DNA of 64,000 nucleotides from an uncultured Candidatus Saccharibacteria bacterium. GTDB lineage: Bacteria > Patescibacteriota > Minisyncoccia > UBA6257 > XYB1-36-10. This document shows positions 613-60,204 of the stretch, in pieces (position 1 is the first letter of the stretch; every line of letters begins with the position of its first letter). The notes under the pieces are model-generated. The model did not search any database. It was not told the origin of the DNA and worked only from the letters and a program-made list of their open reading frames with translations. The DNA lies in NCBI GenBank assembly GCA_964362215.1, contig CAYIDJ010000001.1, forward strand, positions 13,151 to 77,150, written 5' to 3'. A program made the position numbers and the translations under genes.

Positions 613-810
613 AAAGTCCGACCAAAGGAGAAATCTCAATACTGTATTCTTATTATTAGAATAAAAGTTATCGTAAGATAACTACCTCACTATCCAACCT
701 CTCCCCTAAATGGAGTGAGGTCTAATCAAAGGAAACTTATTAACATACTCGAGCGCATAAAGGCGTGGTACAAATTAATATCTTAGTTATATGGCAAATA
801 ACACTGTTTA

Positions 811-918
811 GAAGCCAAGCTTTCTGTTTGCTGGACCGCGCGGAGCTCGACTGGAGCGAGTCAGAGGAATTTTTTAGCCAAAAAATATCCGTGTCCAGCC
901 AACAGGAAGGTTGGCTTC
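811..918. repeat. Family-1 structured repeat, copy 1 of 8, nested inside a degenerate Family-2-like element spanning ~730-960
   Basis: gaagccaagctttctgtttgctggACCGCGCGGAGCTCGACTGGAGCGAGTCAGAGGAATTTTTTAGCCAAAAAATATCCGTGTCcagccaacaggaaggttggcttc. The flanks (catactcgagcgc ... ggtagcgagagtatg) match the Family-2 ends. Confidence 0.75.
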
Positions 919-995
919 TTCTCGCCGCAAATAAACGTTGGTAGCGAGAGTATGTTGGCGAGGTGCCATTAAGGCCTCACTATACTTAATACTTC

Positions 996-4183: not shown

Positions 4184-4699
4184 GATAAAAAAACCAACCA
4201 GTAAAGTAAGGAGAAGTTAAAATGTCAAAACCAAAAAACACGGAAAACAACGAGGTTAGCACCCAATCAACTCCAACTCCAAAAAAAACATCCTCGTGAT
4301 TACTCCCCCACACCACAGGAAAAAAAGCTTCTTCATAATTTATCCGAATAGGAAAAAAGGGGAGAAGAATCACTCGAAGAATGCATCGTCGGACTTCCCG
4401 TACGAAAACCATGGGAATAATACCGCTCAAAACTTATCACCCGGACGCCCCCAGCGTCCGTTTTTATTTTTACCAATACTCTTAACTTAAATATTTGACA
4501 ACCAATTAATTTACTGCTTAACTAAGCACAGTATAAAACTACGGAAAAGGAGTAATAAAATGGTAATCAAAGGAAAGAGACCGAGAAAGGCTGACCTCTT
4601 ACCAAAAAAAACCATCTTCGTCATCGTCCCAAAAAAACTGCCGGAAGATGACCAAAATAAAAAACTAGAAAGAAAAGTAATCCCCTTCCCCGGAAAAAA

Positions 4700-5569: not shown

Positions 5570-5733
5570 AGTATGTAAAAACTCGCCTTAGTTTGAAATT
5601 TATTTATAATTTGTTTCTTGCCTGCCCCGTGGTGGAGCTTTACGGGGCCTGCCCCGAGCGAAGTCGAGAGGCCTGCCCCGTGTCCGCCTTCGGCGGATCT
5701 ACGGGAGTTATTGGAGTTTATCGCTCCGCGATT

Positions 5734-6184: not shown

Positions 6185-6250
6185 CACTATTTCTAAATAA
6201 GATCCGCCTGCCTTTAGGCAGGCTACATTCACATCCAACTTCTTCCCTCA

Positions 6251-6446
6251 AGATGCGGATGTTGATTAATTAGTGTCTTAATAAATATGCCTTAAGCGCG
6301 CATCCGAGCCCGAGCGGGCATGGTTCCGCCGAAGAGGCGGAGAGCGAGGGCGAGGCGTAGTGAAAACTCTCGCTGGGAGTTTGAACGGTAGCGAAAGGCA
6401 TATTTATTAAGACACGCCTACCTCGCATATTCCATTCATCCGCATC
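6251..6446. repeat. Family-2 structured element, copy 1 (conserved core AAGCGCGCATCCGAGCCCGAGCGGGCA...GAGCGAGGGCGAGGCGTAG...ACGGTAGCGA inside covarying outer stems)
   Basis: Outer stem gtgtcttaataaatatgcct/aggcatatttattaagacac (6273-6415), plus a further outer pair agatgcggatg/catccgcatct. Homologous copies lie at 57997 and 58914. Confidence 0.75.
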
Positions 6447-6449
6447 TCC

Positions 6450-7061
6450 CTACTGCGCCGTCATGCTCTTCAACTTCTCAATCGCGTCTTGATACTGTTT
6501 ATTAAGGTCGTTTATCGCCGTCACCTCGTCGTTTATCTTTCCTATCACCGACCCTATTCTGTCCGGCGCCACCACCCCGCCGTCAAACTTGTTTTGTAAA
6601 ATTGACAGCAGTTCGTTCAAAAACCTTCCGTAGTTAAGAAGGCGGATAATAAGCGTCGTCTCATGGTTAATTGCCTTCAACGCCGTGTCCGTCGCCGCCC
6701 GCGGTGTTACCTCCGACAACACCTCCGCCATTTTCCGCAACTCCAGTGACAAATCATATGCCTTCTGTTGCAGCTCTCCCGTTCGCCGTATTTCCTCCCG
6801 CACCAACTCTATCGCCTCTCTCTGTCTCCCTTCCCGATCAAAATCATTTATTCGTCCTAAATTTCGCCCCGACTCCGCTGATAAATCCACTATCTGGCTG
6901 GCAATAATCGCTCCCGAACGATTTGCCTCTAAAAACTGGTCCGGCACGTGCGAATCCGTGGCTAAAACCAAAAACCACAGCAAATATACTGCCACCATTA
7001 CCACGGCAAAAACTGACCAAAAAACAGTTCTTTTTGAAATTCGGCTCAATGCGAATGCCAT
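6450..7061 (-). CDS. Hypothetical membrane-anchored protein (203 aa, N-terminal transmembrane helix, coiled-coil)
   Basis: N-terminal hydrophobic segment WSVFAVVMVAVYLLWFLVLA. No recognisable domain. Confidence 0.45.
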   Translation of the reverse strand: MAFALSRISKRTVFWSVFAVVMVAVYLLWFLVLATDSHVPDQFLEANRSGAIIASQIVDLSAESGRNLGRINDFDREGRQREAIELVREEIRRTGELQQKAYDLSLELRKMAEVLSEVTPRAATDTALKAINHETTLIIRLLNYGRFLNELLSILQNKFDGGVVAPDRIGSVIGKINDEVTAINDLNKQYQDAIEKLKSMTAQ

Positions 7062-19074: not shown

Positions 19075-19208
19075 TAAACAACTACCCTCCCAGAGGCGAA
19101 TACTATAGTCAACTAAACAAACTTAAAAGTAAAAAATCTTTTTGCTCAAAACCATAAGGCGCCTCGCCAACAAAATAAACATCGCAACCAACTAAACAGG
19201 ATGGAAAA

Positions 19209-19306
19209 GAAAAAACTTCCTTTCGAGACCGCGCGGAGCACGACGGTGCGAGTCAGAGTGATTTTTTAGCAAAAAAATACACGTGTCTCGAAAGGAAGTT
19301 TTTTCT
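19209..19306. repeat. Family-1 structured repeat, copy 2 (between convergent holA and rpsT)
   Basis: aaaaaacttcctttcgagACCGCGCGGAGCACGACGGTGCGAGTCAGAGTGATTTTTTAGCAAAAAAATACACGTGTCtcgaaaggaagtttttt. Confidence 0.8.
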
Positions 19307-20533: not shown

Positions 20534-20676
20534 TAAAACGACTTCTCCGCAAGACCGCGCGCCCGCCCGACCAGAACAACTAGTCGTTCGGGCGGGGAGT
20601 CCGCCAACTGGCGGACGAGTCAGAGTGATTTTTCAGCGGAAAAATACACGTGTCTTGCGGAGAAGTCGTTTTTATC
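20534..20676. repeat. Family-1 structured repeat, copy 3 (variant with a 50-nt insertion replacing helix P2)
   Basis: ...caagACCGCGCG[cccgcccgaccagaacaactagtcgttcgggcggggagtccgccaactggcgga]CGAGTCAGAGTGATTTTTCAGCGGAAAAATACACGTGTCttgc... The inserted segment itself forms two hairpins. Confidence 0.75.
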
Positions 20677-31777: not shown

Positions 31778-31880
31778 ACCTTATTCCCAACTTCTTACCC
31801 AAGAAGATGAAAATCTGTTTTGGAAATTATTTTCGAGGCTTATCAGAACTTAGACGCTCCAATATCTCTATCCTTATCAG

Positions 31881-32031
31881 CCATCCCCATAATGTCTTGA
31901 GGGGCGCGTCGGAGCTCGCCGCGCTTGGTCCAAACACTCAAGATAATTGAGTACTTGGGCGGCGGGCGAGACTGAGAGCGGACGGCCGCTGGAGCCGTCC
32001 GACTCGTCCCCGATGGATATTATGGGGATGG
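31881..32031. repeat. Family-4 MITE-like element (151 nt, 13-bp terminal inverted repeats ccatccccataat/attatggggatgg), copy A
   Basis: Near-identical to 39657-39807. The interior has hairpins actcaa-gataa-ttgagt and ggacggc-cgctggag-ccgtcc. Confidence 0.8.
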
Positions 32032-32083
32032 CTGTTTCAGTAAATTGCGGATCAACCGCCAAAATAACTTCCAAAACATTTAT

Positions 32084-32591: not shown

Positions 32592-35500
32592 ATGGCTACC
32601 ACCGACAACCGCCCTCTTCCTGAACGAGAAAAAGAAATCCTCGCCTTCTGGGAGGATAAAAAAATTTTTACCAAATCCCTCCAACAAACTGCCAAGGGTA
32701 AACCTTTTGTTTTTTATGAAGGCCCCCCTTCCGCCAACGGCCGCCCCGGCCTCCACCACGTTCTTGCTCGCGCTTTCAAAGACATCATCTGCCGCTATCA
32801 GACCATGTGCGGCCGCTATGTCGCCCGCCGCGCCGGCTGGGACACCCACGGCCTCCCCGTGGAAGTCCAGGTGGAAAAAGAGTTGGGACTGAAAAGTAAG
32901 CGCGATATTGAAAATATCGTCCCCGGCGACCGCCGCGCCAGCATCATCACCTTCAACCAGAAATGCCAAGAATCCGTCTGGCGCTACCGCGACCTCTGGG
33001 AAAAGTTAACTTCTCGTATGGGCTATTGGTTAGATATGGAAAATCCTTATGTTACTTATGAACCGGAATATATCGAATCTCTCTGGTGGATTATATCCCA
33101 AGTTAACCGCCAAGGCCTTCTTTACCAAGGCCATAAAATTCTTCATTGGTGTCCCCGTTGCGGCACCGGCCTCTCCTCTCACGAAATCGCTCAGGGTTAC
33201 CAAACCGTCACCGACACCTCTGTTTTCGTAAAATTCAAACTCGCCCCTCATCAAAAAATCGGTAAAATAACCGTCCCCGCCAATACCTATATTCTATCCT
33301 GGACCACCACCCCTTGGACCCTCCCCGGCAACGTCGCTTTAGCGGTCAATAAAAATATAAAATACGTTCTCGTTAAAATTGGCTCCGAAAACTTTATCGC
33401 TTCGGCGGACTTTCTCTTCCAACTCAAAGAAAAAACAATTTCTGTATCCAATAAACAAATCAAAGGCCAGAATCTGATCGGCCTTAAATACGAGCCGCTC
33501 TTTAACATTCCCAAACTTAAATCCCCCGCCTCCCATCAAATTTATCACGCCGATTTTGTTACTACCTCCGAAGGCGCCGGCATCGTCCACACCGCCGTTA
33601 TGTATGGCGAAGACGACTACGAACTGGGCCAAAAATATAATCTTCCCGCCATCCACACCGTGGATGACGCCGGCCGCTTTCTTAAATTCGTCTCCGCCGG
33701 CCTCGCCGGCCTTGCCGTCAAAGATTCCGCCACCACCAAGAAAATCATCTCTTATCTGGAAAATAAAAACTTCCTCCTTAAAACCGCTCCCTACGAACAC
33801 GAATACCCTTTCTGCTGGCGCTGCGACACGCCCGTCATCTACTACGCCCGCTCTTCCTGGTTTATCAAGATGTCCGCCCTCAAAGACAAACTCATTAAAA
33901 ATAACTCGTCCATCAGCTGGGTTCCCTCTCATCTTAAAAATGGTCGCTTCGGTGAATGGTTAAGTAACGTCAAGGACTGGGCTGTTTCCCGCGAACGCTA
34001 CTGGGCCACTCCTTTACCCATCTGGCTCTGCTCCTCTTGTAATCACCTAGAAGTTATCGGCAGTTTGTCCGAATTAGATAAACTCACTGTCTCCTCCAAT
34101 AACCGCTTTTTCATTATGCGCCACGGTCAAGCTCTCTCTAACGTCAAAAACTTCTTGAGCTCTTACCCGGAAAAACGCCTCAACCCCCTCACTCCCGCCG
34201 GCGCTAAAGAAATGCTGTCCGCCGCCGCCCGCCTTAAATCAAAAAAGATTGATCTTATTGTTTCCTCCGACCTCCCTCGCGCCCACGCTACTGCCAAACT
34301 CATCGCCTCTGCTCTCGGCATTAAAAAAGTCGCTATTGACAAGCGCCTGCGCGAGCGCGACTTCGGCCAAGATAACGGCCTGCCGATTAAAAACGCTGAC
34401 TCCTCGCAACACGAACCGCTATCCAGTATCCGCGCCCGCGTAATAAAAGCGCTTTTTGACACCGACCGCCAGTATCAAAATAAAAACATTCTTTTTATCA
34501 GTCACGGTTCTCCTCTGCTTACTCTTCGCCTCGCCGCCGAAAACACTGACAATACTCTCCCCGTCAATGAACCTCTTTTGCCTACCGGCGGCTGGCAGGA
34601 GCTTAAACTGAAACGTCTTCCCCGAAACGACGATGGCGCCGTAGACCTTCACCGCCCTTATATTGATGAAGTTAAGCTCTCCTGCCCCTCCTGCCGCCAT
34701 TCCCTGACTCGCGTACCCGATCTCCTTGATGTTTGGTTTGACTCCGGCGCCATGCCTTTTGCCGCCCCCCGCTTCCCTTTCGCCGTCAAAAAACTTGCCG
34801 CCACCGACTATCCCGCCGACTATATCTCCGAAGCCGTTGACCAGACCCGCGGCTGGTTCTATACCCTTCTTGCCGTCTCTACTCTCTTAGGTTTCAAAGC
34901 TCCTTACCGCCACGTCATCTCCTTGGGACACCTCAACGATAAACACGGCCAGAAAATGTCCAAATCTCGCGGCAATATAGTTGACGCGGAAGAAATGATG
35001 GAACGCTACGGCGCCGATATTGTCCGCTGGCACTTTTACACCATTAACCAACCCGGCGACACCAAAAACTTTGACGAATCCGACCTCAAGAAAGTTACTA
35101 ATCGGGTTTTTAATATTCTTCAAAACTCTCTTGTCTTCTACCAAACATACCGCGCCTCGCCGAAACTTCATGCACAACCTAAGTATAGTCAAAGGACAAA
35201 AAACATTCTGGATCTCTGGCTCGCCGCCCGCCTCACTGCCACCAAACTGGAGATAACTTCTCGATTAGACAAATACGACGTTTATCACGCCGCCTTAAGT
35301 ATTGAAAAATTAATTGACGATCTTTCTCGCTGGTATATCCGCCGCTCCCGTTCCCGCTTTCAACAACCCACTTCTACCTCCGACCACGTTGCCGCCTCTG
35401 TCACTCTCCGCTCCGCCCTTATGGAAATATCCGCCCTTCTCGCTCCCTTCACGCCCTTCTTCGCTGAGTGGCTCTATAAAGAACTGGGTGGCTCTAAAGA

Positions 35501-36071
35501 ATCAATTCATCTAGAGTCGTGGCCAAAAACCTCCCCCAAAATAGACCCCGCTCTTCTTTCCCAAATGGAAACAGCTCGCCAACTCTCAAGTTTAGGACTA
35601 TCCGAACGCTCATCCTTAAATATCAAAGTCCGTCAGCCCCTCGCCGAAATGAAAGTGTCGCTAGACACCCTAAGCGCAGTCAAAGGGTCTCATCTGCCAA
35701 AAGAAATAGTCGCCCTCGTCGCCGATGAGGTTAATGTTAAAAAAATATCTCTCGGTAATCGCCTCGCCAAAGACAAAGAAGTTGAACTTGACGCCGTCAT
35801 CACTCCCGCTCTTCGCGAGGAAGGCAACTTGCGCGAACTAATCCGCGCCGTTCAGTCCCTCCGCGCCGCCGCCGGCTTAAAACCCGGAGAACCAGTTTCT
35901 CTTTTCTTCCAATCCTCCCCTGTCGCTTCCGCCTTTATCATTAAACACACCGCCGCCCTCACTAAGGCCTGCTCTCTTAAAACCGTTTCCGCCAACTCCG
36001 TCTCTTCTCCTAAATCAAGCCGTGCGCTCTCCTTAGACGACCTCGGCCCTATCTCTCTCGCGATAAAATAA
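32592..36071 (+). CDS. ileS: Isoleucyl-tRNA synthetase carrying an inserted histidine-phosphatase (PGAM-like) domain
   Basis: HIGH-region PSANGRPGLHHV, GWDTHGLPVE, CP1 editing domain, KMSKS (QKMSKSRGN). ~180 extra residues (aa ~500-682) contain RHGQ...SHGSPL histidine-phosphatase motifs between the conserved IGSLSEL and DLHRPY segments. Confidence 0.85.
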   Translation: MATTDNRPLPEREKEILAFWEDKKIFTKSLQQTAKGKPFVFYEGPPSANGRPGLHHVLARAFKDIICRYQTMCGRYVARRAGWDTHGLPVEVQVEKELGLKSKRDIENIVPGDRRASIITFNQKCQESVWRYRDLWEKLTSRMGYWLDMENPYVTYEPEYIESLWWIISQVNRQGLLYQGHKILHWCPRCGTGLSSHEIAQGYQTVTDTSVFVKFKLAPHQKIGKITVPANTYILSWTTTPWTLPGNVALAVNKNIKYVLVKIGSENFIASADFLFQLKEKTISVSNKQIKGQNLIGLKYEPLFNIPKLKSPASHQIYHADFVTTSEGAGIVHTAVMYGEDDYELGQKYNLPAIHTVDDAGRFLKFVSAGLAGLAVKDSATTKKIISYLENKNFLLKTAPYEHEYPFCWRCDTPVIYYARSSWFIKMSALKDKLIKNNSSISWVPSHLKNGRFGEWLSNVKDWAVSRERYWATPLPIWLCSSCNHLEVIGSLSELDKLTVSSNNRFFIMRHGQALSNVKNFLSSYPEKRLNPLTPAGAKEMLSAAARLKSKKIDLIVSSDLPRAHATAKLIASALGIKKVAIDKRLRERDFGQDNGLPIKNADSSQHEPLSSIRARVIKALFDTDRQYQNKNILFISHGSPLLTLRLAAENTDNTLPVNEPLLPTGGWQELKLKRLPRNDDGAVDLHRPYIDEVKLSCPSCRHSLTRVPDLLDVWFDSGAMPFAAPRFPFAVKKLAATDYPADYISEAVDQTRGWFYTLLAVSTLLGFKAPYRHVISLGHLNDKHGQKMSKSRGNIVDAEEMMERYGADIVRWHFYTINQPGDTKNFDESDLKKVTNRVFNILQNSLVFYQTYRASPKLHAQPKYSQRTKNILDLWLAARLTATKLEITSRLDKYDVYHAALSIEKLIDDLSRWYIRRSRSRFQQPTSTSDHVAASVTLRSALMEISALLAPFTPFFAEWLYKELGGSKESIHLESWPKTSPKIDPALLSQMETARQLSSLGLSERSSLNIKVRQPLAEMKVSLDTLSAVKGSHLPKEIVALVADEVNVKKISLGNRLAKDKEVELDAVITPALREEGNLRELIRAVQSLRAAAGLKPGEPVSLFFQSSPVASAFIIKHTAALTKACSLKTVSANSVSSPKSSRALSLDDLGPISLAIK

Positions 36072-39549: not shown

Positions 39550-39656
39550 CTATTCCCTCCCATCAACCACCTCACCTAGAAAAATGTAGGGAAATCAAAT
39601 ATAGGCAACTCATAAATACACTTTCGCGCAGTTCTGAATCATAATTTTTTTAGCAA

Positions 39657-39807
39657 CCATCCCCATAATGTCTTGAGGGGCGCGTCGGAGCTCGCCGCGC
39701 TTGGTCCAAACACTCAAGATAATTGAGTACTTGGGCGGCGGGCGAGACTGAGAGCGGACGGCCGCTGGAGCCGTCCGACTCGTCCCCGATGGACATTACG
39801 GAGATGG
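39657..39807. repeat. Family-4 MITE-like element, copy B
   Basis: Identical to copy A except for 3 substitutions in the right terminal inverted repeat. Located between the histidine kinase gene and polA. Confidence 0.8.
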
Positions 39808-39836
39808 TTGCGTGTTTAGTAACAACACTAATATAC

Positions 39837-43423: not shown

Positions 43424-43495
43424 TTCCTAAAATAATTTAATTTTGGTTGGTTAACCTAATCTTCCTCGCTAAAAAATTTAACATCTACACTGTAA

Positions 43496-43592
43496 GAAAA
43501 AGCTTCCTTCCGAGACCGCACGGAGCACGACGGTGCGAGTCAGAGTGATTTTTCAGCAGAAAAATACACGTGTCTCGGAAGGAAGCTTTTTC
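43496..43592. repeat. Family-1 structured repeat, copy 4 (3' of ruvB)
   Basis: gaaaaagcttccttccgagACCGCACGGAGCACGACGGTGCGAGTCAGAGTGATTTTTCAGCAGAAAAATACACGTGTCtcggaaggaagctttttc. Confidence 0.8.
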
Positions 43593-43634
43593 TGAAAGAC
43601 AAAAGACACAAGAAGACAAACTGTACATCTAATA

Positions 43635-44736: not shown

Positions 44737-44836
44737 AGAAAAAGCTTTCTTTCGAGACCGCGCGGAGCTCGACTGGAGCGAGTCAGAGGGATTTTTTAGC
44801 AAAAAAATACCCGTGTCTCGGAAGGAAGCTTTTTCT
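44737..44836. repeat. Family-1 structured repeat, copy 5 (preceded by a promoter-like TTGACAAACAC...TATAAA at 44711-44736)
   Basis: gaaaaagctttctttcgagACCGCGCGGAGCTCGACTGGAGCGAGTCAGAGGGATTTTTTAGCAAAAAAATACCCGTGTCtcggaaggaagctttttc. Confidence 0.8.
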
Positions 44837-45078: not shown

Positions 45079-45304
45079 AGTTCCTTCTCCCCAACAACCC
45101 CCCACTAGTCGAGAGATACCGACACTAAAATATAAAAATAAACTAAGAAAGACGAGTTTTTTATTTACTAAACCGCATACCTGCTAGTTTCTAACGAGAA
45201 ACCCTTTTAACTTAAACTTGCATGAGTAGTGTTTAGCTAATATATTTAAGCGCGCATAGATGTGTTGTCAGTCAATATATTAATTACACACTAAACAGCA
45301 TCGT

Positions 45305-45414
45305 GGAAGCCAAGCTTTCTGTTTGCTGGACCGCGCGGAGCTCGACTGGAGCGAGTCAGAGGGATTTTTTAGCAAAAAAATACCCGTGTCCGGCAAATAG
45401 AAAGATTGGCTTCC
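45305..45414. repeat. Family-1 structured repeat, copy 6 (outer stem identical to copy 1; part of a duplicated composite with a Family-2-like fragment at ~45250-45300)
   Basis: gaagccaagctttctgtttgctggACCGCGCGGAGCTCGACTGGAGCGAGTCAGAGGGATTTTTTAGCAAAAAAATACCCGTGTCcggcaaatagaaagattggcttcc. Confidence 0.8.
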
Positions 45415-45469
45415 TACTACCGCAAACAGAAAATATGTTGGTAAACCGCCAATCTACCATTTTAAATTT

Positions 45470-50279: not shown

Positions 50280-50440
50280 GACTCCTGCTCTTTTATGCTT
50301 TGTTGTTATAAACAAAAGCCTGCCAAAATTTTTGTGCGAGTAAAAACTTAGACGGGCTACCTTAAGTCTAACCTCTACCTCCCAATAGAGGTTGTAGTCA
50401 TCATTAAAAAAGAAAATCAAATATGTAAACCGAGGCGAGG

Positions 50441-50534
50441 GCGGCTTTTTCCATAAGACCGCGCGGAGTCCGACGGGACGAGTCAGAGGGATTTTTTAGC
50501 CAGAAAATACCCGTGTCTTATGGAAAAAGCCGCC
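50441..50534. repeat. Family-1 structured repeat, copy 7 (between convergent ruvC and the class A PBP)
   Basis: gcggctttttccataagACCGCGCGGAGTCCGACGGGACGAGTCAGAGGGATTTTTTAGCCAGAAAATACCCGTGTCttatggaaaaagccgcc. Confidence 0.8.
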
Positions 50535-50566
50535 CGAAGCCGCGACCTTCTTTTATCTAACACAAA

Positions 50567-54667: not shown

Positions 54668-56029
54668 TTAACTCTTGTATATTAATTCCTTTATTAAATT
54701 AACTTTTTGGTTTAAATTACTATTTTTTAATATTTCCTTGTTTATTTTTTCACAGGCATGGATAGCGGTTGTGTGGTCTCTCTTCCCCACCTTATCCCCA
54801 ATAAAAGGATAAGACATACTTAAAACATTACGGAGTAAATACATTATTATCTGCCTTGGTTCCACTATCTCTTTTTTTCTTGATTTTCCTACTAAATCAC
54901 TTATTGGGACCTCATAAAAATCAGCTACTGCCTTAATAATCTTATTTGGATTAACATTCTTATTACTTTGATTGTTTTTACTTATTATATCTTCTACCAC
55001 TTCCTCCGTAATTTGTATATTTTTACTTTCTTTTACGAATATTATTTTATTTAATATCCCCTCTATTTCTCTTATGTTTTTGGTTAATTTATTAGCTATT
55101 AAACTCACCACCGGCTCGTCCAGGGAATGGTGGCATTCCTGCAATTTTGTCTTTATTATCGCCATTCTCATCTCATAGTCGGGATAACTGATATCAACCG
55201 TCATTCCCCCCTCAAACCGGCTTCTTAAGCGCTCCTGTAACGTTGGTAATTCACTGGGTGGACGATCGGAAGAAATTATAATCTGCTTGTTAATTGAGTG
55301 TAAAGCGTTAAAAGTGTGAAAAAATTCTTCCTCCGTCTTTTCTTTACCTCCAATAAACTGTATATCGTCTATAATTAAAGTATCCACGTTCCGGTAGCGG
55401 CTCTTTATATCCTCCATCCGCTTATTTTTTATAGCCCAAACCACGTCGCTAACGAACCTTTCTGAAGTCACATACTTGACGGAAACCACATCTTTATACA
55501 TAGCCATAATCTCATTGCCGATTGACTGTATTAAATGGGTTTTTCCCAACCCCACCCCTCCGTAAATAAACAGCGGATTGTACTTTACTCCCACATTTTT
55601 TACTACCGCCTGCGCGGCGGCAAAAGCCAGCTCATTAGCCGATCCCACCACAAAGTTTTTGAATGTATATTTAGGATTAAGATTGGTGTTCGGGTTTATT
55701 TTAAACTCCGGAAACATCATTTGCGCGGAAGGCATATAAGCCGTTTTAGCTTTATGCGACAATGTTAACGCCTTAAATATCCCCCCCGACACCACAAACT
55801 CCACTTTTCTGGCGGAAGAATCCAAATTGCGCAGTACGCTTAAAATATTTTTATTATATTTATTTTCCACCCACTCCTTTGAAAAATTATTTGGCAGTGC
55901 TATCACAAAAGTGCCGGCATCGTCCTTATCTACTAATTTACTGTTCTTAAGCCAGGTATGAAAATTAGCGTGAGTCAGCTGAACTTCCATTTCCCCTAAT
56001 ACCGATTCCCAAATTTTTTCCAACTCCAT
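54668..56029 (-). CDS. dnaA: Chromosomal replication initiator protein DnaA
   Basis: AAA+ Walker A GGVGLGKTHL, sensor motifs, and the C-terminal DNA-binding domain (DHTTAIHACEKI). Confidence 0.9.
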   Translation of the reverse strand: MELEKIWESVLGEMEVQLTHANFHTWLKNSKLVDKDDAGTFVIALPNNFSKEWVENKYNKNILSVLRNLDSSARKVEFVVSGGIFKALTLSHKAKTAYMPSAQMMFPEFKINPNTNLNPKYTFKNFVVGSANELAFAAAQAVVKNVGVKYNPLFIYGGVGLGKTHLIQSIGNEIMAMYKDVVSVKYVTSERFVSDVVWAIKNKRMEDIKSRYRNVDTLIIDDIQFIGGKEKTEEEFFHTFNALHSINKQIIISSDRPPSELPTLQERLRSRFEGGMTVDISYPDYEMRMAIIKTKLQECHHSLDEPVVSLIANKLTKNIREIEGILNKIIFVKESKNIQITEEVVEDIISKNNQSNKNVNPNKIIKAVADFYEVPISDLVGKSRKKEIVEPRQIIMYLLRNVLSMSYPFIGDKVGKRDHTTAIHACEKINKEILKNSNLNQKVNLIKELIYKS

Positions 56030-56228
56030 ATTAATTTAGAAACATTATACTCTCTTTTTTTAAAAAACACTTACCCCGTCAAATTTAGTCAGTTTATTTT
56101 ACCCTGTCCCACTCCTCTTTCCAACCTAAAAATCTGTAGGAACGCCGTTGACGCGCCGTGTCAATGACATTTCTACCTTCCTCCCACTTTTGATTTTTTT
56201 ATTTAATTCTGCTACATTTATAGCGCTT

Positions 56229-56363
56229 ATGTCCCAAACTTATCAACCTAAAAAGAAAAAACGCCGCCGCACCCACGGTTTTCTGAAACGCCGCCGCACC
56301 CCTACCGGCCGCAATGTTCTCTCCCGCCGCCGCCGCAAAGGCCGTCGCCGCCTCGCCGTTTAA
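56229..56363 (+). CDS. rpmH: 50S ribosomal protein L34
   Basis: [44 protein letters not shown]. Start trimmed from the longer ORF. Confidence 0.9.
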
Positions 56364-56417
56364 TTTAATCATTACTTTTTAGTACAAATTTGCCCGCCAG
56401 CCAATATTATTTATCTT

Positions 56418-56738
56418 ATGCTGGCCAAGAAATATAAACTGTCCTCTTCTTCCTTTCCCCGTCCCTCTCACCTCGGCCGCTCCGGACGTTATCTGTCCGT
56501 AAACCTCTCCCCTACCTCCCTCCCTTTCAGCCGTTTTGGAATTATTGTCAGCTTAAAGTATGATAAGCGTGCTGTCGCTCGCCACCGCCTCAAAAGAGAA
56601 ATCTTTGAACTTATCAGAAAAACCGGCGCTTTCCGTGTTCCCGGCCATGACATTGTTGTTGTTGTCAAAAAAGGAGTAACCTCCGTCGACCTGATTCCAA
56701 TTACTAAAGAGGCCTCCTCTCTACTCTCCAATCTCTAA
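56418..56738 (+). CDS. rnpA: Ribonuclease P protein component
   Basis: Follows rpmH. Basic, with an RNR-like motif (KRAVARHRLKR). 106 aa. Confidence 0.75.
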   Translation: MLAKKYKLSSSSFPRPSHLGRSGRYLSVNLSPTSLPFSRFGIIVSLKYDKRAVARHRLKREIFELIRKTGAFRVPGHDIVVVVKKGVTSVDLIPITKEASSLLSNL

Positions 56739-56741
56739 CTT

Positions 56742-57494
56742 ATGACTTTTTTATTTAACGAAATTCTCTATCGTCCCATCCTCAACGCTTTAGTGTTGGT
56801 TTATAACCATCTTTCCTTTGGTAGTTGGGGACTGGCGGTTATTATCATTACCGTCATCATCCGGATTATTCTCTTTCCTTTCTTCCATAAAGCCAGCCGC
56901 AGCCAGGCGATTATGCAGAAAATTCAACCCCAAATAAAAGACATTACTGATCGCCATCAAAACAACAAAGAAAAGCAAATGAGAGAGATAATGGCTCTCT
57001 ATCAAAAACATCGCGTCAACCCTTTTTCCAGCTTTGGCCTTCTCTTTATTCAACTGCCCGTGCTGATTGCTCTTTATCTTGTTTTTTTACGCGGTCTAAC
57101 TCCCGACAACCTTTCTCTTCTCTACTCCTTCGTCTCCGCGCCTCTTCATGTTGACTTCACCTTTCTATGGTTGATAAATCTAAAAGAAAGTAGTATTATA
57201 ATTGTCGTTGTCGCCGCCGCTCTCCAGTACCTTCAGGCCCGCCTTAGTCTGCCGCGCCGGCAACCCGCGGCCGCCGTTTCTTCCGCCGAACGCCTAGGGC
57301 GTCAAATGTCTTTTATCGGCCCGGTTGTTACTCTCCTCGTTTTAATCAATCTCCCCTCGGTTATCGGTATTTACTGGATAACAACTTCCGCTTTCTCTAT
57401 CTTCCAGCAGCTTATTATCAATCGCTCTCTATCCGACTCTAACTACCAAGAACATGGACCAGACGGAAACAAAAACAATCAAACCAATCCTTGA
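56742..57494 (+). CDS. yidC: Membrane protein insertase YidC (short Oxa1-like form)
   Basis: Five-transmembrane core with conserved RILLFPF...MQKIQPQIKDI...MALYQKHRVNPFSS segments. Confidence 0.85.
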   Translation: MTFLFNEILYRPILNALVLVYNHLSFGSWGLAVIIITVIIRIILFPFFHKASRSQAIMQKIQPQIKDITDRHQNNKEKQMREIMALYQKHRVNPFSSFGLLFIQLPVLIALYLVFLRGLTPDNLSLLYSFVSAPLHVDFTFLWLINLKESSIIIVVVAAALQYLQARLSLPRRQPAAAVSSAERLGRQMSFIGPVVTLLVLINLPSVIGIYWITTSAFSIFQQLIINRSLSDSNYQEHGPDGNKNNQTNP

Positions 57495-57903
57495 ACAAAT
57501 TATCGCCTTAATGAACATTGGCGACTTTAGAGTTGAATGGAACGAAGAATTGCGTCGCCTCAGCGTCTTCATTGATAATGAATATTTCATTAAAGACCAA
57601 CTGCCGCCGCTGGTTGAAAACCTCAATCATTTAGGCCAGTTGATTGCCAAAAAAATCGGCGTGAGTTTAGGTTGTGTGGACGTCAACAACTATCGTTTGG
57701 AACGCGAACGCATCATTACCGACTTAGCCCGCGCCGCCGCTCGCAAAGCCATCATGACTAAAAACGAAGTATCTCTCCCTATTATGAACTCCTACGAACG
57801 CCGCCTCATTCATATGGAGCTCGCCATGCATCCTGACATTCGCACCGAAAGCGATGGCGAAGGGCGCTCCCGCCACGTCAAAATCAAACCCATCCTTGAA
57901 TAA
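57454..57903 (+). CDS. Jag/KhpB RNA-binding protein (KH plus R3H)
   Basis: R3H motif SYERRLIHMEL. Conserved position after yidC. Confidence 0.75.
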   Translation: MDQTETKTIKPILEQIIALMNIGDFRVEWNEELRRLSVFIDNEYFIKDQLPPLVENLNHLGQLIAKKIGVSLGCVDVNNYRLERERIITDLARAAARKAIMTKNEVSLPIMNSYERRLIHMELAMHPDIRTESDGEGRSRHVKIKPILE

Positions 57904-57996
57904 AAATAAAAATCCGCCCCCTAGGCGGATTACTTTTTCATCCAACTTCCATTTCATCCAACTTCCATCTTCTAATTATAATCAGATCATATAAAT

Positions 57997-58147
57997 AGCT
58001 CGCTAATATACTCAAGCGCGCATCCGAGCCCGAGCGGGCACGGTTCCCCTCTCTTTCCTGCTCTGTAAGAGAGGGGGGAGCGAGGGCGAGGCGTAGTCCA
58101 TTCCCTCGCTGGGGGAATGGACGGTAGCGAGAGTATATTGGCAAGCT
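57997..58147. repeat. Family-2 structured element, copy 2 (between convergent jag and clpP)
   Basis: agctcgctaatatactcAAGCGCGCATCCGAGCCCGAGCGGGCAcggttcccctctc...gagaggggGGAGCGAGGGCGAGGCGTAGtccattccctcgctgggggaatggACGGTAGCGAgagtatattggcaagct. Confidence 0.8.
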
Positions 58148-58156
58148 ATTTCCTCT

Positions 58157-58747
58157 TTATTTTTTCCCGTTTGACTTCACAATCTCGTCAATAATCCCGT
58201 ACTTCTTCGCCTCTTCCGCTGACAGGTAAAAATCGCGGTCGGTGTCTTTTTCTATTTTTGAGGGTGACTGCTTGGTGTGGCGGACTAAAATGTCGTTTAT
58301 CTGCTTTTTAATCTTCAAAATTTGCTTGGCGCTTATCTCAATATCGCTCGCCTGTCCCTCAAATCCGCCCATTGGCTGGTGCAGCATTATTTGTGAATTA
58401 GGCAGGGCTATCCGCTTTCCCTTCTCCCCTGCCGCCAGTAGCACCGCCGCCATTGACGCCGCTATACCCACGCATACCGTTGACACGTTCGGCTTTACAA
58501 ACTGCATCGTATCGTAAATGGCCATTCCCGCCGTCACCGACCCGCCCGGGCTGTTGATATAGAGCTTAATGTCCTTTTTCTGGTCCTCATGCTCTAAAAA
58601 CAGCAATTGAGCGATAATGGTGTTGGCTACCGGGTCTACGATCGGCCCGCCCAAAAACACTATCCTTTCCTTCAAAAGACGTGAATATATATCAAACGCC
58701 CTCTCCCCAAACTGACTTTTCTCTATTACCGTCGGAATTAAATTCAT
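58157..58747 (-). CDS. clpP: ATP-dependent Clp protease proteolytic subunit
   Basis: Catalytic Ser in GIAASMAA, His in MLHQP, and the overall ClpP fold. Confidence 0.9.
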
Positions 58748-58913
58748 ATTCTTTATAATAAACGATTATTCCACTACCGTCAAATACATAAACCACAATT
58801 CATCTATAAATAAAAGTTACCTTGAGGTAACTACCTTAAGTCCAACTCCATCCCCCTATGGTTGGCAACTTAAAAAGCATCTCACTGATATACGATTACA
58901 ATATTAATTAGAT

Positions 58914-59118
58914 AACTCACTAATATATTCGAGCGCGCATCCGAGGTCGAGCGGGCACGGTCTGAGCGCTTAAATTTCTCAATTTGAGCGCTCGGGAGCG
59001 AGACCGAGGCGTAGTCCATTCTCTCGTCCCGATTTTTGTTCACAAAAATCGAGGATTCTCGATAGCGAAGCTATCGGAACTAGGAGAATGGACGGTAGCG
59101 AAAATACATTAGTGAGTC
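58914..59118. repeat. Family-2 structured element, copy 3 (tig-clpP intergenic), with expanded internal hairpins
   Basis: aactcactaatatattcGAGCGCGCATCCGAGGTCGAGCGGGCAcggtctgagcgc...gagcgctcGGGAGCGAGACCGAGGCGTAGtccattctctcg...ggagaatggACGGTAGCGAaaatacattagtgagt. GGTC/GACC here covaries with GCCC/GGGC in copies 1 and 2. Confidence 0.8.
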
Positions 59119-59157
59119 ATCCGCACTTACAACCTACTATACTATCAAATCATCCAC

Positions 59158-60204
59158 TTATATTTTCTCCAACCATCTAAACACCTTTTCATTCTTCACT
59201 TTCCCATAACCAAAATCATATAACTGCTGCAAATTCACTTCCCTTTTTTTACTCTCCGACACTGCTGCTAAATGACGATTCATCTCCTCTTGCGTCTCCT
59301 CCTGCGTCGGTATCACCTTTTCTTCTTTGGCTATCGCGTCCAGAACCAAATGCGCTCTTATCTCCTTTTCTGCCTGCTGTTTCAAAGCTTCACTTAATTT
59401 TTCCCCGCTCTCATAATACTTTTTAACGTACTCGTCAAAAGTTATATTCCCCTCGTTCAAACTTTGTTTCAATTCCTCCTTCATATTTTCCGCCGCTCTC
59501 TCCGTCATCATCGCCGGCACCGTCAACCGCGCTCCTCTTATCGCCTCCTCCAATATTCTGGCGCGGTTTTTATCCGCTTCCCTTACCTTTTTTTCCGCCA
59601 CCAGCCCTTCGCGAATACTGTCTTTAAGTTCTGCCACACTCTTAAAATTGCCGAAACTTTTTGCTTCCTCATCCGTCAATTCCGTTTTCTTTTCTTTATC
59701 CCCTTCCCGCTTCTTCTCTCGTGACGCCCTAAGCCACCCTATCGCTTGCTCCACCTCCTCCTCGGTGACTTTTATGTTTTTTAGCTTTTCTCCTAATTCC
59801 TGATTCGCTTGTTTAGCCGCCGCTTTATACTCGCCTAACTTTACTTCCGGAAAAGGCACTACTCTGGCCTCATATGTCAGTCCTTCGTTGTCTTCTTTTA
59901 TTGTCACCTGCGGCGGCGCAACCAGCGTCCATTCTTTTTCGCTTACTATATTCTTCAGTGTTTTTTTAATTGCCATCTCCGCCGCGGCGTTAAAAATTTT
60001 TTCTTTATTGAGGTAAGGATTCACCATCTCGGCTGGCGCCTGTCCTCGTCTGAACCCCCTTATTTCTACCTGGCTTGCTTCTGCCGCTTCCGCCGCCTCC
60101 CAATATTCCTTAAATTCTTCCCTTTGTAGTTTTATCTCTATCGCCAAACTGCCGTCTCCTTTATCTTCTATTTTTTCTTCCGCCATAACTTTTTTTACAG
60201 CCAA
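59158..60204 (-). CDS. tig: Trigger factor (short form, apparently lacking the FKBP/PPIase domain)
   Basis: N-terminal ribosome-binding region (GFRRGQAP signature), helical C-terminal arm domain. 348 aa. Conserved tig-clpP arrangement. Confidence 0.7.

Follow-up and report, generated by a model that had tools for sequence, protein, structure and literature searches.

Family 2, a structured sequence family with three copies in the 64-kb stretch of DNA analysed here (positions 1–64000; hereafter the window), is uncatalogued and widely spread, and is probably a non-coding, non-autonomous, proliferating insertion element, i.e. a structured palindromic repeat in the sense of the RPE, BOX and ERIC repeats. 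We favour this reading, with some reserve, because the element is absent in relatives, replaced at its site, nested with other families, built of shuffled modules and able to sit in frame within a gene. The same five behaviours exclude both a housekeeping RNA gene and a regulator of specific genes. As read from genome comparisons rather than from a caught transposition event, copies appear to have been gained, lost, replaced and nested within the time that species take to diverge.

All three copies lie on the + strand, at 6273–6415 (copy 1), 57993–58151 (copy 2) and 58911–59121 (copy 3), including the full closing stem P1. This confirms the observation in an earlier note, made on this DNA from the letters alone, of three structured copies; its limits for copy 1 are kept, and those for copies 2 and 3 are shifted slightly because P1 extends beyond the ends given there. 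The copies have identical cores and unrelated yet paired stems in common. The 25-nt 5' core GCGCGCATCCGAGNNNGAGCGGGCA has exactly three matches in the window against 0 expected, and the 3' core GAGCGAGNNNGAGGCGTAG also has exactly three, at the same loci. A covariance model (R1) trained on unrelated metagenomic copies only gives copies 1, 2 and 3 scores of 94.4, 91.2 and 53.7 bits, respectively, and the next window match scores 12.6 bits. Copy 1 has a perfect 21-bp P1. In copy 3, an insertion of 53 nt with two hairpins (59027–59079) divides the P3 loop and enlarges P3; it is also found, with compensatory changes, in L025 and L067.

The Family 2 fold is a three-way junction of 110–210 nt that consists of the closing helix P1, an arm made up of the helix Pa with a bulge and the hairpin P2, and a second arm, P3. 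P1 is long and near-perfect (8–29 bp across elements); it is the outer stem for which the earlier note had claimed covariation, correctly. Its inner 5–15 bp are common within subfamilies (e.g. CTAATATACTC), and its outer 5–20 bp are locus-specific. A tandem G·A and a short helix usually lie between P1 and the three-way junction, and the junction strands vary between subfamilies. Pa is a 12-bp long-range helix (5'-CC GA GCCC GA GC-3' / 5'-GC GA GGGC GA GG-3') with two tandem G·A pairs in CGAG context. Its middle pairs take CG, GC, AU and UA forms among 49 distinct sequences, and in some copies the middle reads GGAC/GGAC, which gives a third tandem G·A. The switch from GCCC/GGGC to GGTC/GACC that had been read as a long-range helix or pseudoknot is real; because it forms the centre of the nested 12-bp helix, the pairing is an ordinary nested helix and the pseudoknot option falls away.

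Pa terminates at an 8-nt bulge, GGGCANGG, that faces a single A, and beyond it, after GGGCAYGG, lies the hypervariable hairpin P2, which corresponds to the variable hairpin of the earlier note. The second hairpin of the earlier note is P3, and its expanded form is copy 3 with the 53-nt insertion. The bulge positions were fixed by the search pattern, and their conservation was tested on the diverged copies found by the model alone: seven of the eight retain these positions, with N free, and the eighth (L083 8133) has lost the bulge A. The apical loop of P3, C(U/A)CGCNGGG, is conserved and was absent from every search pattern. C-GNA-G triloops are frequent among the shortest P2 hairpins, and mini-hairpins of the form GCGAAGC are seen repeatedly. 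These might hint at DNA folding, a hint to which we give little weight because GNRA tetraloops also occur.

In copy 2, the 5' arm of P1 (57993–58013) pairs with its 3' arm (58131–58151) over 21 bp, with one G·T and one C·A. The 5' junction AAGCGCGCAT (58014–58023) was assigned by hand analysis and constrained folds: AA/GA next to P1 replaces the tandem G·A of the other copies, and the GC that follows pairs with the GC of the 3' junction GGTAGCGA (58123–58130). Pa is formed by the strands CCGAGCCCGAGC (58024–58035) and GCGAGGGCGAGG (58080–58091), between which lie the 8-nt bulge GGGCACGG (58036–58043; consensus as above) and the P2 hairpin (58044–58078). The P3 hairpin, with the conserved apical loop CTCGCTGGG, occupies 58096–58122. 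All these features are on the + strand.

Covariation among the 49 distinct sequences supports a conserved single-strand fold. Paired cells amount to 90.8% (70.5% when shuffled), double-change cells number 211 (59.9 when shuffled), and the covariation score is 0.484 compared to 0.139 when shuffled and at most 0.127 with the partners slid. The heavy compensatory change that had been noticed among three paralogues thus stays strong with more homologues. The column pairs of highest mutual information are exactly the helices, and none points to a pseudoknot, bulge–loop or other tertiary contact; a candidate pseudoknot between CUCGCU of the P3 loop and AGCGAG was rejected for want of covariation support. 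RNAalifold independently recovers Pa, P2 and P3.

The strand that folds is the + strand, as in the earlier note. In the core helices, G·U outnumbers A·C by 94 to 12, and by 28 to 12 once two conserved U·G positions are removed. P1 behaves likewise under symmetric scoring, with 35 G·T and 13 A·C beside 803 Watson–Crick and 20 other pairs (48 elements). On the opposite strand the tandem G·A pairs become C·U mismatches, and the + strand fold is the more stable by RNA and DNA parameters alike.

About 50 further copies were found in metagenomes from groundwater, sediment and soil. The metagenome pattern scan gave 66 loci, of which about two thirds are true and about a third, being coding false positives, were dropped; a scan of genome contigs with CATCCGAG...GGGCANGG gave two true matches (Parcubacteria and Patescibacteria MAGs) and ten false ones; and the covariance model gave 59 copies in 50 sources, including the eight diverged copies that the pattern had missed. 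On viral contigs, a loose pattern (CCGAGNNNGAGCGG...GCGAGNNNGAGGCG) matched GC-rich coding false positives only, and a tighter pattern had no match. In one Thermotogae-labelled MAG (L018, 4554–4590), only the 5' half CATCCGAGGCCGAGCGGGCACGGTTCC is present and no 3' half can be recognised; this is perhaps a copy that was truncated, or else a match by chance.

No known family accounts for these elements. Rfam 15 (4227 models) finds only tRNAs and a tmRNA over the window at gathering score, nothing relevant at E ≤ 10 in 57700–59400 and nothing overlapping the elements in 17 other loci. The earlier statement that the element matches none of RNase P, SRP, 6S, tmRNA and introns is thereby supported, and holds for the other Rfam families as well. 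No published description of Family 2 came up in literature searches, whether by topic or by sequence string. Several likenesses were also tried and rejected: (i) to the HDV ribozyme (GGCAUGG... and CCUCGCUGG) and to the CR-I region of RNase P (GAGGAAAG), both of which have the wrong topology and no model match; (ii) to retron msr/msd, the SRP Alu domain, 5S, Y RNA, k-turns and T-boxes, whose anatomy does not fit; and (iii) to TIGR-Tas, which occurs as arrays adjoining tas genes (PMC12045711).

The host range of the family is broad. ClpP assigns the window to Paceibacterota/Parcubacteria, and LysRS and a pabB/trpE-like gene assign the GC-rich loci (62–69% GC) to Candidatus Omnitrophota, so that host GC content extends from 36% to 69%. 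By these markers, Family 2 spans Patescibacteria (Paceibacterota) and Candidatus Omnitrophota, two phyla of ultra-small, uncultivated bacteria that are unrelated to each other. The Omnitrophota copies (L049, L074, L023 and others) are larger, at ∼190–200 nt, with an extra outer stem (e.g. GCCGCGCC/GGCGCGGC) and small flanking hairpins (CCCC-GCGA-GGGG), and often occur in pairs on the same strand within 1.4–2 kb.

Comparison with related genomes indicates that occupancy of the sites is changeable. The syntenic block PPase-tig-clpP / jag-yidC-rnpA / dnaA-dnaN-PBP-ruvC is kept in relatives with 80–82% ClpP identity, in which the tig–clpP gaps are 2–61 nt, the clpP–jag gaps are 24–88 nt and, in two cases, PBP overlaps ruvC. 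Over the 75 kb searched in the four syntenic relatives, there is no element of any family. In the window, copy 3 occupies a gap of 410 nt, copy 2 one of 253 nt and a Family 3 element one of ∼130 nt. In a relative with 92% ClpP identity, the copy-2 and copy-3 sites are both occupied and their interiors differ: the copy-3 site retains P1 and the GAGCG ... GTAGCGA shell with a Family 1 element inside, and the copy-2 site retains the 5' P1 arm with a Family 3 element inside. A length difference in NusA was also checked as a possible element insertion and is not one.

The same nesting is found within the window. A Family 2 shell at 742–956 (+), recognised by its P1 (AACATACTC/GAGTATGTT) and by GAGCGC ... 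GGTAGCGA, has the Family 3 element 810–919 as its interior, and a second shell at 45236–45442 (+), GCTAATATATTT-AAGCGCGCAT ... AAATATGTTGGT, contains the Family 3 element 45305–45414. Family 3 elements are ∼100–110 nt long and have the core GACCGCRCGGAG-hairpin-CGAGTCAGAG-hairpin-CGTGTC; besides these two, copies lie at 19208–19306, 43495–43593, 44737–44836 and 50439–50535, and a variant at 20545–20662, all on the + strand. Family 3 also occurs in L039, L089 and L090, and is absent from relatives at 80% identity. Family 1 (31878–32034 and 39653–39811, both +) has the P1, tandem-GA and three-way plan of Family 2 and the P3 loop CGCTGG, and scores only ∼12 bits with the Family 2 model, and so is a related but distinct family. 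A further structured repeat at 5609–5718 (+), with three GCCTGCCCCG-led hairpins, lies beside a − strand tRNA and has an identical copy in L050. The window also contains, at 32592–36071 (+), a class I aminoacyl-tRNA synthetase (IleRS-like, 1159 aa) with a His_Phos_1 domain inserted between the parts of its catalytic domain.

Modules of Family 2 are exchanged between copies. A nearly identical 107-nt core stands within unrelated P1 stems in L047 and L060, and copy 2 is 98% identical to the copy in L039, which has a different context and differs only in the outer 5–6 bp of P1. P2 and P3 types recombine among copies; at the orthologous locus of L015 and L016, the difference is mainly in P2. Some copies are stably inherited, because two GTDB species (L015 versus L016/L042) have kept one of the loci in the same place. 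Split copies with an ORF inside P2 were searched for and none was found. L026 is 99.8% identical to the window (55500–58159 compared) up to the end of copy 2 and continues with the flank of L039; either the assembly is chimeric or recombination took place at the repeat, and L026 was left out as evidence of mobility.

Family 2 can also sit within a protein-coding gene. In Omnitrophota, the linker between the domains of a pabB/trpE-like gene contains a copy (L049, at about 2052–2240) that is in sense and in frame and whose P3 loop is translated as PRWG. A decayed in-gene copy (38.6 bits) is found in L096 at 6581–6704. Other orthologues of the gene carry variants or decayed copies, and the 469-aa forms and L097 have none. 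Family 2 is thus, like the RPEs, a multi-copy palindromic repeat able to sit in frame within ORFs.

The orientation of the elements goes with the DNA strand and not with the genes nearby. All 13 window elements of the four families lie on the C-rich + strand, compared to a roughly 50/50 distribution of genes between the strands, and the C-rich strand likewise carries the element in ∼22 of 28 cases on related contigs with a skew. Relative to co-directional neighbours the orientation is mixed (four sense, seven antisense), and no gene class is associated with Family 2, which answers in the negative the earlier question of a particular neighbouring gene class. The GC skew of the + strand is about −0.3 throughout the window (1–64000), its AT skew is negative, and Pfam-confirmed genes are split about evenly. 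There is no skew switch at the divergent dnaA / rpmH-rnpA-yidC-jag junction (56.0–56.2 kb), the expected origin site. The motif TCCAACTYC occurs 40–70 nt upstream of all three Family 2 copies (6234, 57941, 57957 and 58841) and also at 4272, 41110 and 56019, i.e. seven matches in the window compared to 2.1 expected. On the − strand it reads GGAAGTTGGATG and immediately precedes an intrinsic terminator, and its heptamer forms part of P1 in L060 and L028.

These observations bear on three other explanations. Family 2 could be a new class of small self-cleaving or catalytic RNA, in which the junction aligns the Pa/P2 and P3 arms and the GGGCANGG bulge docks with the CGCNGGG loop in the manner of loops A and B of the hairpin ribozyme. 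Such a ribozyme is compatible with the mobile-element reading, since the repeats would spread because ribozymes of this kind ride on mobile DNA. It would fit the concentration of conserved nucleotides in bulge and loop among variable stems and even variable junction strands, the near-constant arm lengths across subfamilies (by hand count ∼12–15 nt per strand for P3 and ∼16–17 for Pa plus its extension) and the large excess of G·U over A·C; bacterial hammerhead and twister ribozymes are likewise multi-copy, in both orientations and phylogenetically patchy. However, the hammerhead, twister, twister-sister, hatchet, pistol, HDV-like and hairpin models of Rfam have no match in 57700–59400 even at E ≤ 10, mutual information contains no bulge–loop or tertiary covariation, and decayed copies persist in frame within an intact ORF. 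Moreover, most window copies are antisense to or convergent with their neighbours and have no consistent promoter, so the sense RNA may rarely be made. We regard a ribozyme as unlikely. A riboswitch or cis-regulatory leader was rejected, given both orientations, positions mostly at 3' ends or between convergent genes, and unrelated neighbours; so was a housekeeping RNA (RNase P, SRP or 6S-like), which would be kept in close relatives and is usually single-copy: the element is missing from the 75 kb of syntenic relatives and is present here three times in 64 kb.

The strongly conserved core and covarying fold could also denote genes for stable small RNAs that act in trans (as protein scaffold or decoy), have their own promoters and are released by RNase III cleavage of P1. 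AT-rich, TATAAT-like hexamers lie 8–20 nt upstream of several copies (e.g. TATAAT at −16 of copy 2 and TACAAT at −15 of copy 3), and the locus kept in two species (L015 and L016/L042) would agree with a gene. Against this stand the absence from close relatives, the swapping of the interior for other families at the same site, the in-frame copy inside a gene, distances of only 4–35 nt to flanking ORFs in L031 and L044, which leave no room for a promoter, and a promoter scan that finds none on the + strand directly upstream of the Family 2 copies. This makes such genes quite improbable, and the functional host RNA gene implied by the earlier note is not supported: occurrence in both orientations adds to the evidence against it, and the note's reading as a conserved RNA fold is upheld only in part, i.e. 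for the fold. Alternatively, the element could be a cis-acting module in the mRNAs of its neighbours (a 3'-end stabiliser, processing site, terminator or insulator). At least ten of the 13 window elements adjoin the stop codon of a − strand gene, 10–70 nt away, and several Family 3 P1 stems are bordered by A and T runs like bidirectional terminators. Intrinsic terminators of the − strand lie just beyond each Family 2 copy (6206–6223, 57911–57931 and 58815–58832), so the mRNAs of orf203, clpP and tig would carry the element in antisense in their 3' UTRs. Correia and ERIC repeats have effects of this kind (PMC10969869). But such an mRNA would contain the complement of the conserved strand, and the wobble and G·A statistics favour the other one; copies in other genomes are in sense (L031 and L060), orthologous genes in relatives do without the element, and no gene class is associated with it. 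We therefore consider a cis module very unlikely.

For the favoured selfish insertion element, a mechanism can be proposed. The two parallel arms place the invariant bulge and the invariant loop at equal height, and these would together form a recognition or active module, which a trans-acting factor not encoded beside the element may need to copy or insert it. Among the ∼45 ORFs of the 64-kb window there is no transposase, reverse transcriptase or HUH/Y1 domain. Favoured landing sites may be hairpin loops and the interiors of older elements, which would explain the locus-specific closing stem of each copy, and template switching could, speculatively, extend the palindrome and lengthen P1. Recombination at the conserved segments would shuffle P1, P2 and P3 between copies. 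No target-site duplication is detectable among 30 copies, the longest flanking direct repeat being on average 1.9 nt compared to 1.5 ± 0.25 nt for shuffled pairings.

Whether RNA or single-stranded DNA is the acting form is a closer matter. We lean slightly to single-stranded DNA, i.e. to a folded strand that would act during replication, because orientation follows the DNA strand and not the neighbouring genes or transcription. The wobble and loop statistics fit RNA equally well, and in a transcribed form the long perfect P1 could be an RNase III-type substrate in either orientation. Against single-strand transposition, the folded strand lies on the C-rich strand, which is the leading-strand template by the usual skew rule, whereas known single-strand transposons use the exposed lagging-strand template. 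Against a selfish repeat as such, conservation of ∼30 core nucleotides across two phyla and from 36% to 69% GC is unusual, and would fit a catalytic or protein-binding RNA.

A bolder proposal treats the conserved three-way-junction core as a nucleic acid that is itself catalytic or directs an enzyme. It would define a mobile element of a new kind, one that inserts into hairpin loops, including the interiors of its relatives, builds its closing stem from the target and spreads, gene-less, between CPR and Omnitrophota. We hold this to be fairly unlikely; if the core were catalytic or enzyme-directing, it would represent a new mobility mechanism. The genomes of CPR and Omnitrophota belong to the most streamlined known; even so, the 64 kb of such DNA analysed here contain at least 13 structured elements, from four families. 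A gene-less element with an RNA-like conserved fold that crosses phyla, nests in its relatives and is translatable inside enzymes would offer a new way to study the persistence of selfish DNA in minimal genomes. Family 2 is also a potential source of chimeras in metagenome assemblies (e.g. L026) and a well-supported new family for Rfam-type resources.

Several known systems resemble Family 2 in part. REP/RAYT elements, the ends of IS200/IS605 and integron attC sites are recognised as folded single-stranded DNA. They are similar to Family 2 in their strand-specific fold, orientation by replication strand, tolerance of G·T and G·A and greater conservation of stem structure than of sequence; Family 2 differs in being much larger, branched and on the C-rich strand. 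REP/BIME are simple hairpins of 20–40 nt with a 5' GTAG-type motif and a RAYT gene, compared to the branched 110–210-nt fold here; the GTAG/REP motif is not found in Family 2, and the window contains no Y1/HUH gene. Neither of the attC R''/R' motifs (RYYYAAC ... GTTRRRY) occurs in any of the three copies. With hairpin, hammerhead and twister ribozymes, Family 2 has in common a junction that lets conserved unpaired nucleotides of two arms meet, variable stems, multiple copies and a patchy distribution; it differs in having no model match, and catalysis here is putative.

The palindromic repeats are closer. Correia and ERIC are small non-autonomous MITEs that occur in both orientations near gene ends and whose transcript hairpins are cut by RNase III or RNase E (PMC10969869). 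Family 2 resembles them in its long, potentially transcribed hairpins and in this placement, but MITEs have family-wide terminal inverted repeats and target-site duplications, whereas the outer P1 of Family 2 differs at each locus. The pneumococcal BOX, RUP and SPRITE repeats are modular, mutually inserting, clustered and very stable hairpins that may act as terminators or RNAs (PMC10969869), and the Family 1 and Family 3 elements nested in Family 2 shells and the shuffled P1, P2 and P3 modules are similar to these. Unlike the species-specific BOX modules, the bulge, loop and tandem-GA helix of Family 2 stay constant over hosts of widely different GC content. Rickettsia palindromic elements (RPEs) are multi-family palindromic repeats of ∼100–150 bp in reduced genomes, both intergenic and in frame within ORFs, with no known transposase (PMC10969869). 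Likened by description, they match Family 2 in size and multi-family palindromic type, and the copy in the pabB/trpE-like linker is a parallel to their in-frame insertions. Family 2 differs in its hosts (Paceibacterota and Omnitrophota instead of Rickettsia) and in its P1, which is locus-specific and not part of the repeat. Together with a branched core that is conserved and covaries across phyla, this locus-specific closing stem sets Family 2 apart from the known palindromic repeats.
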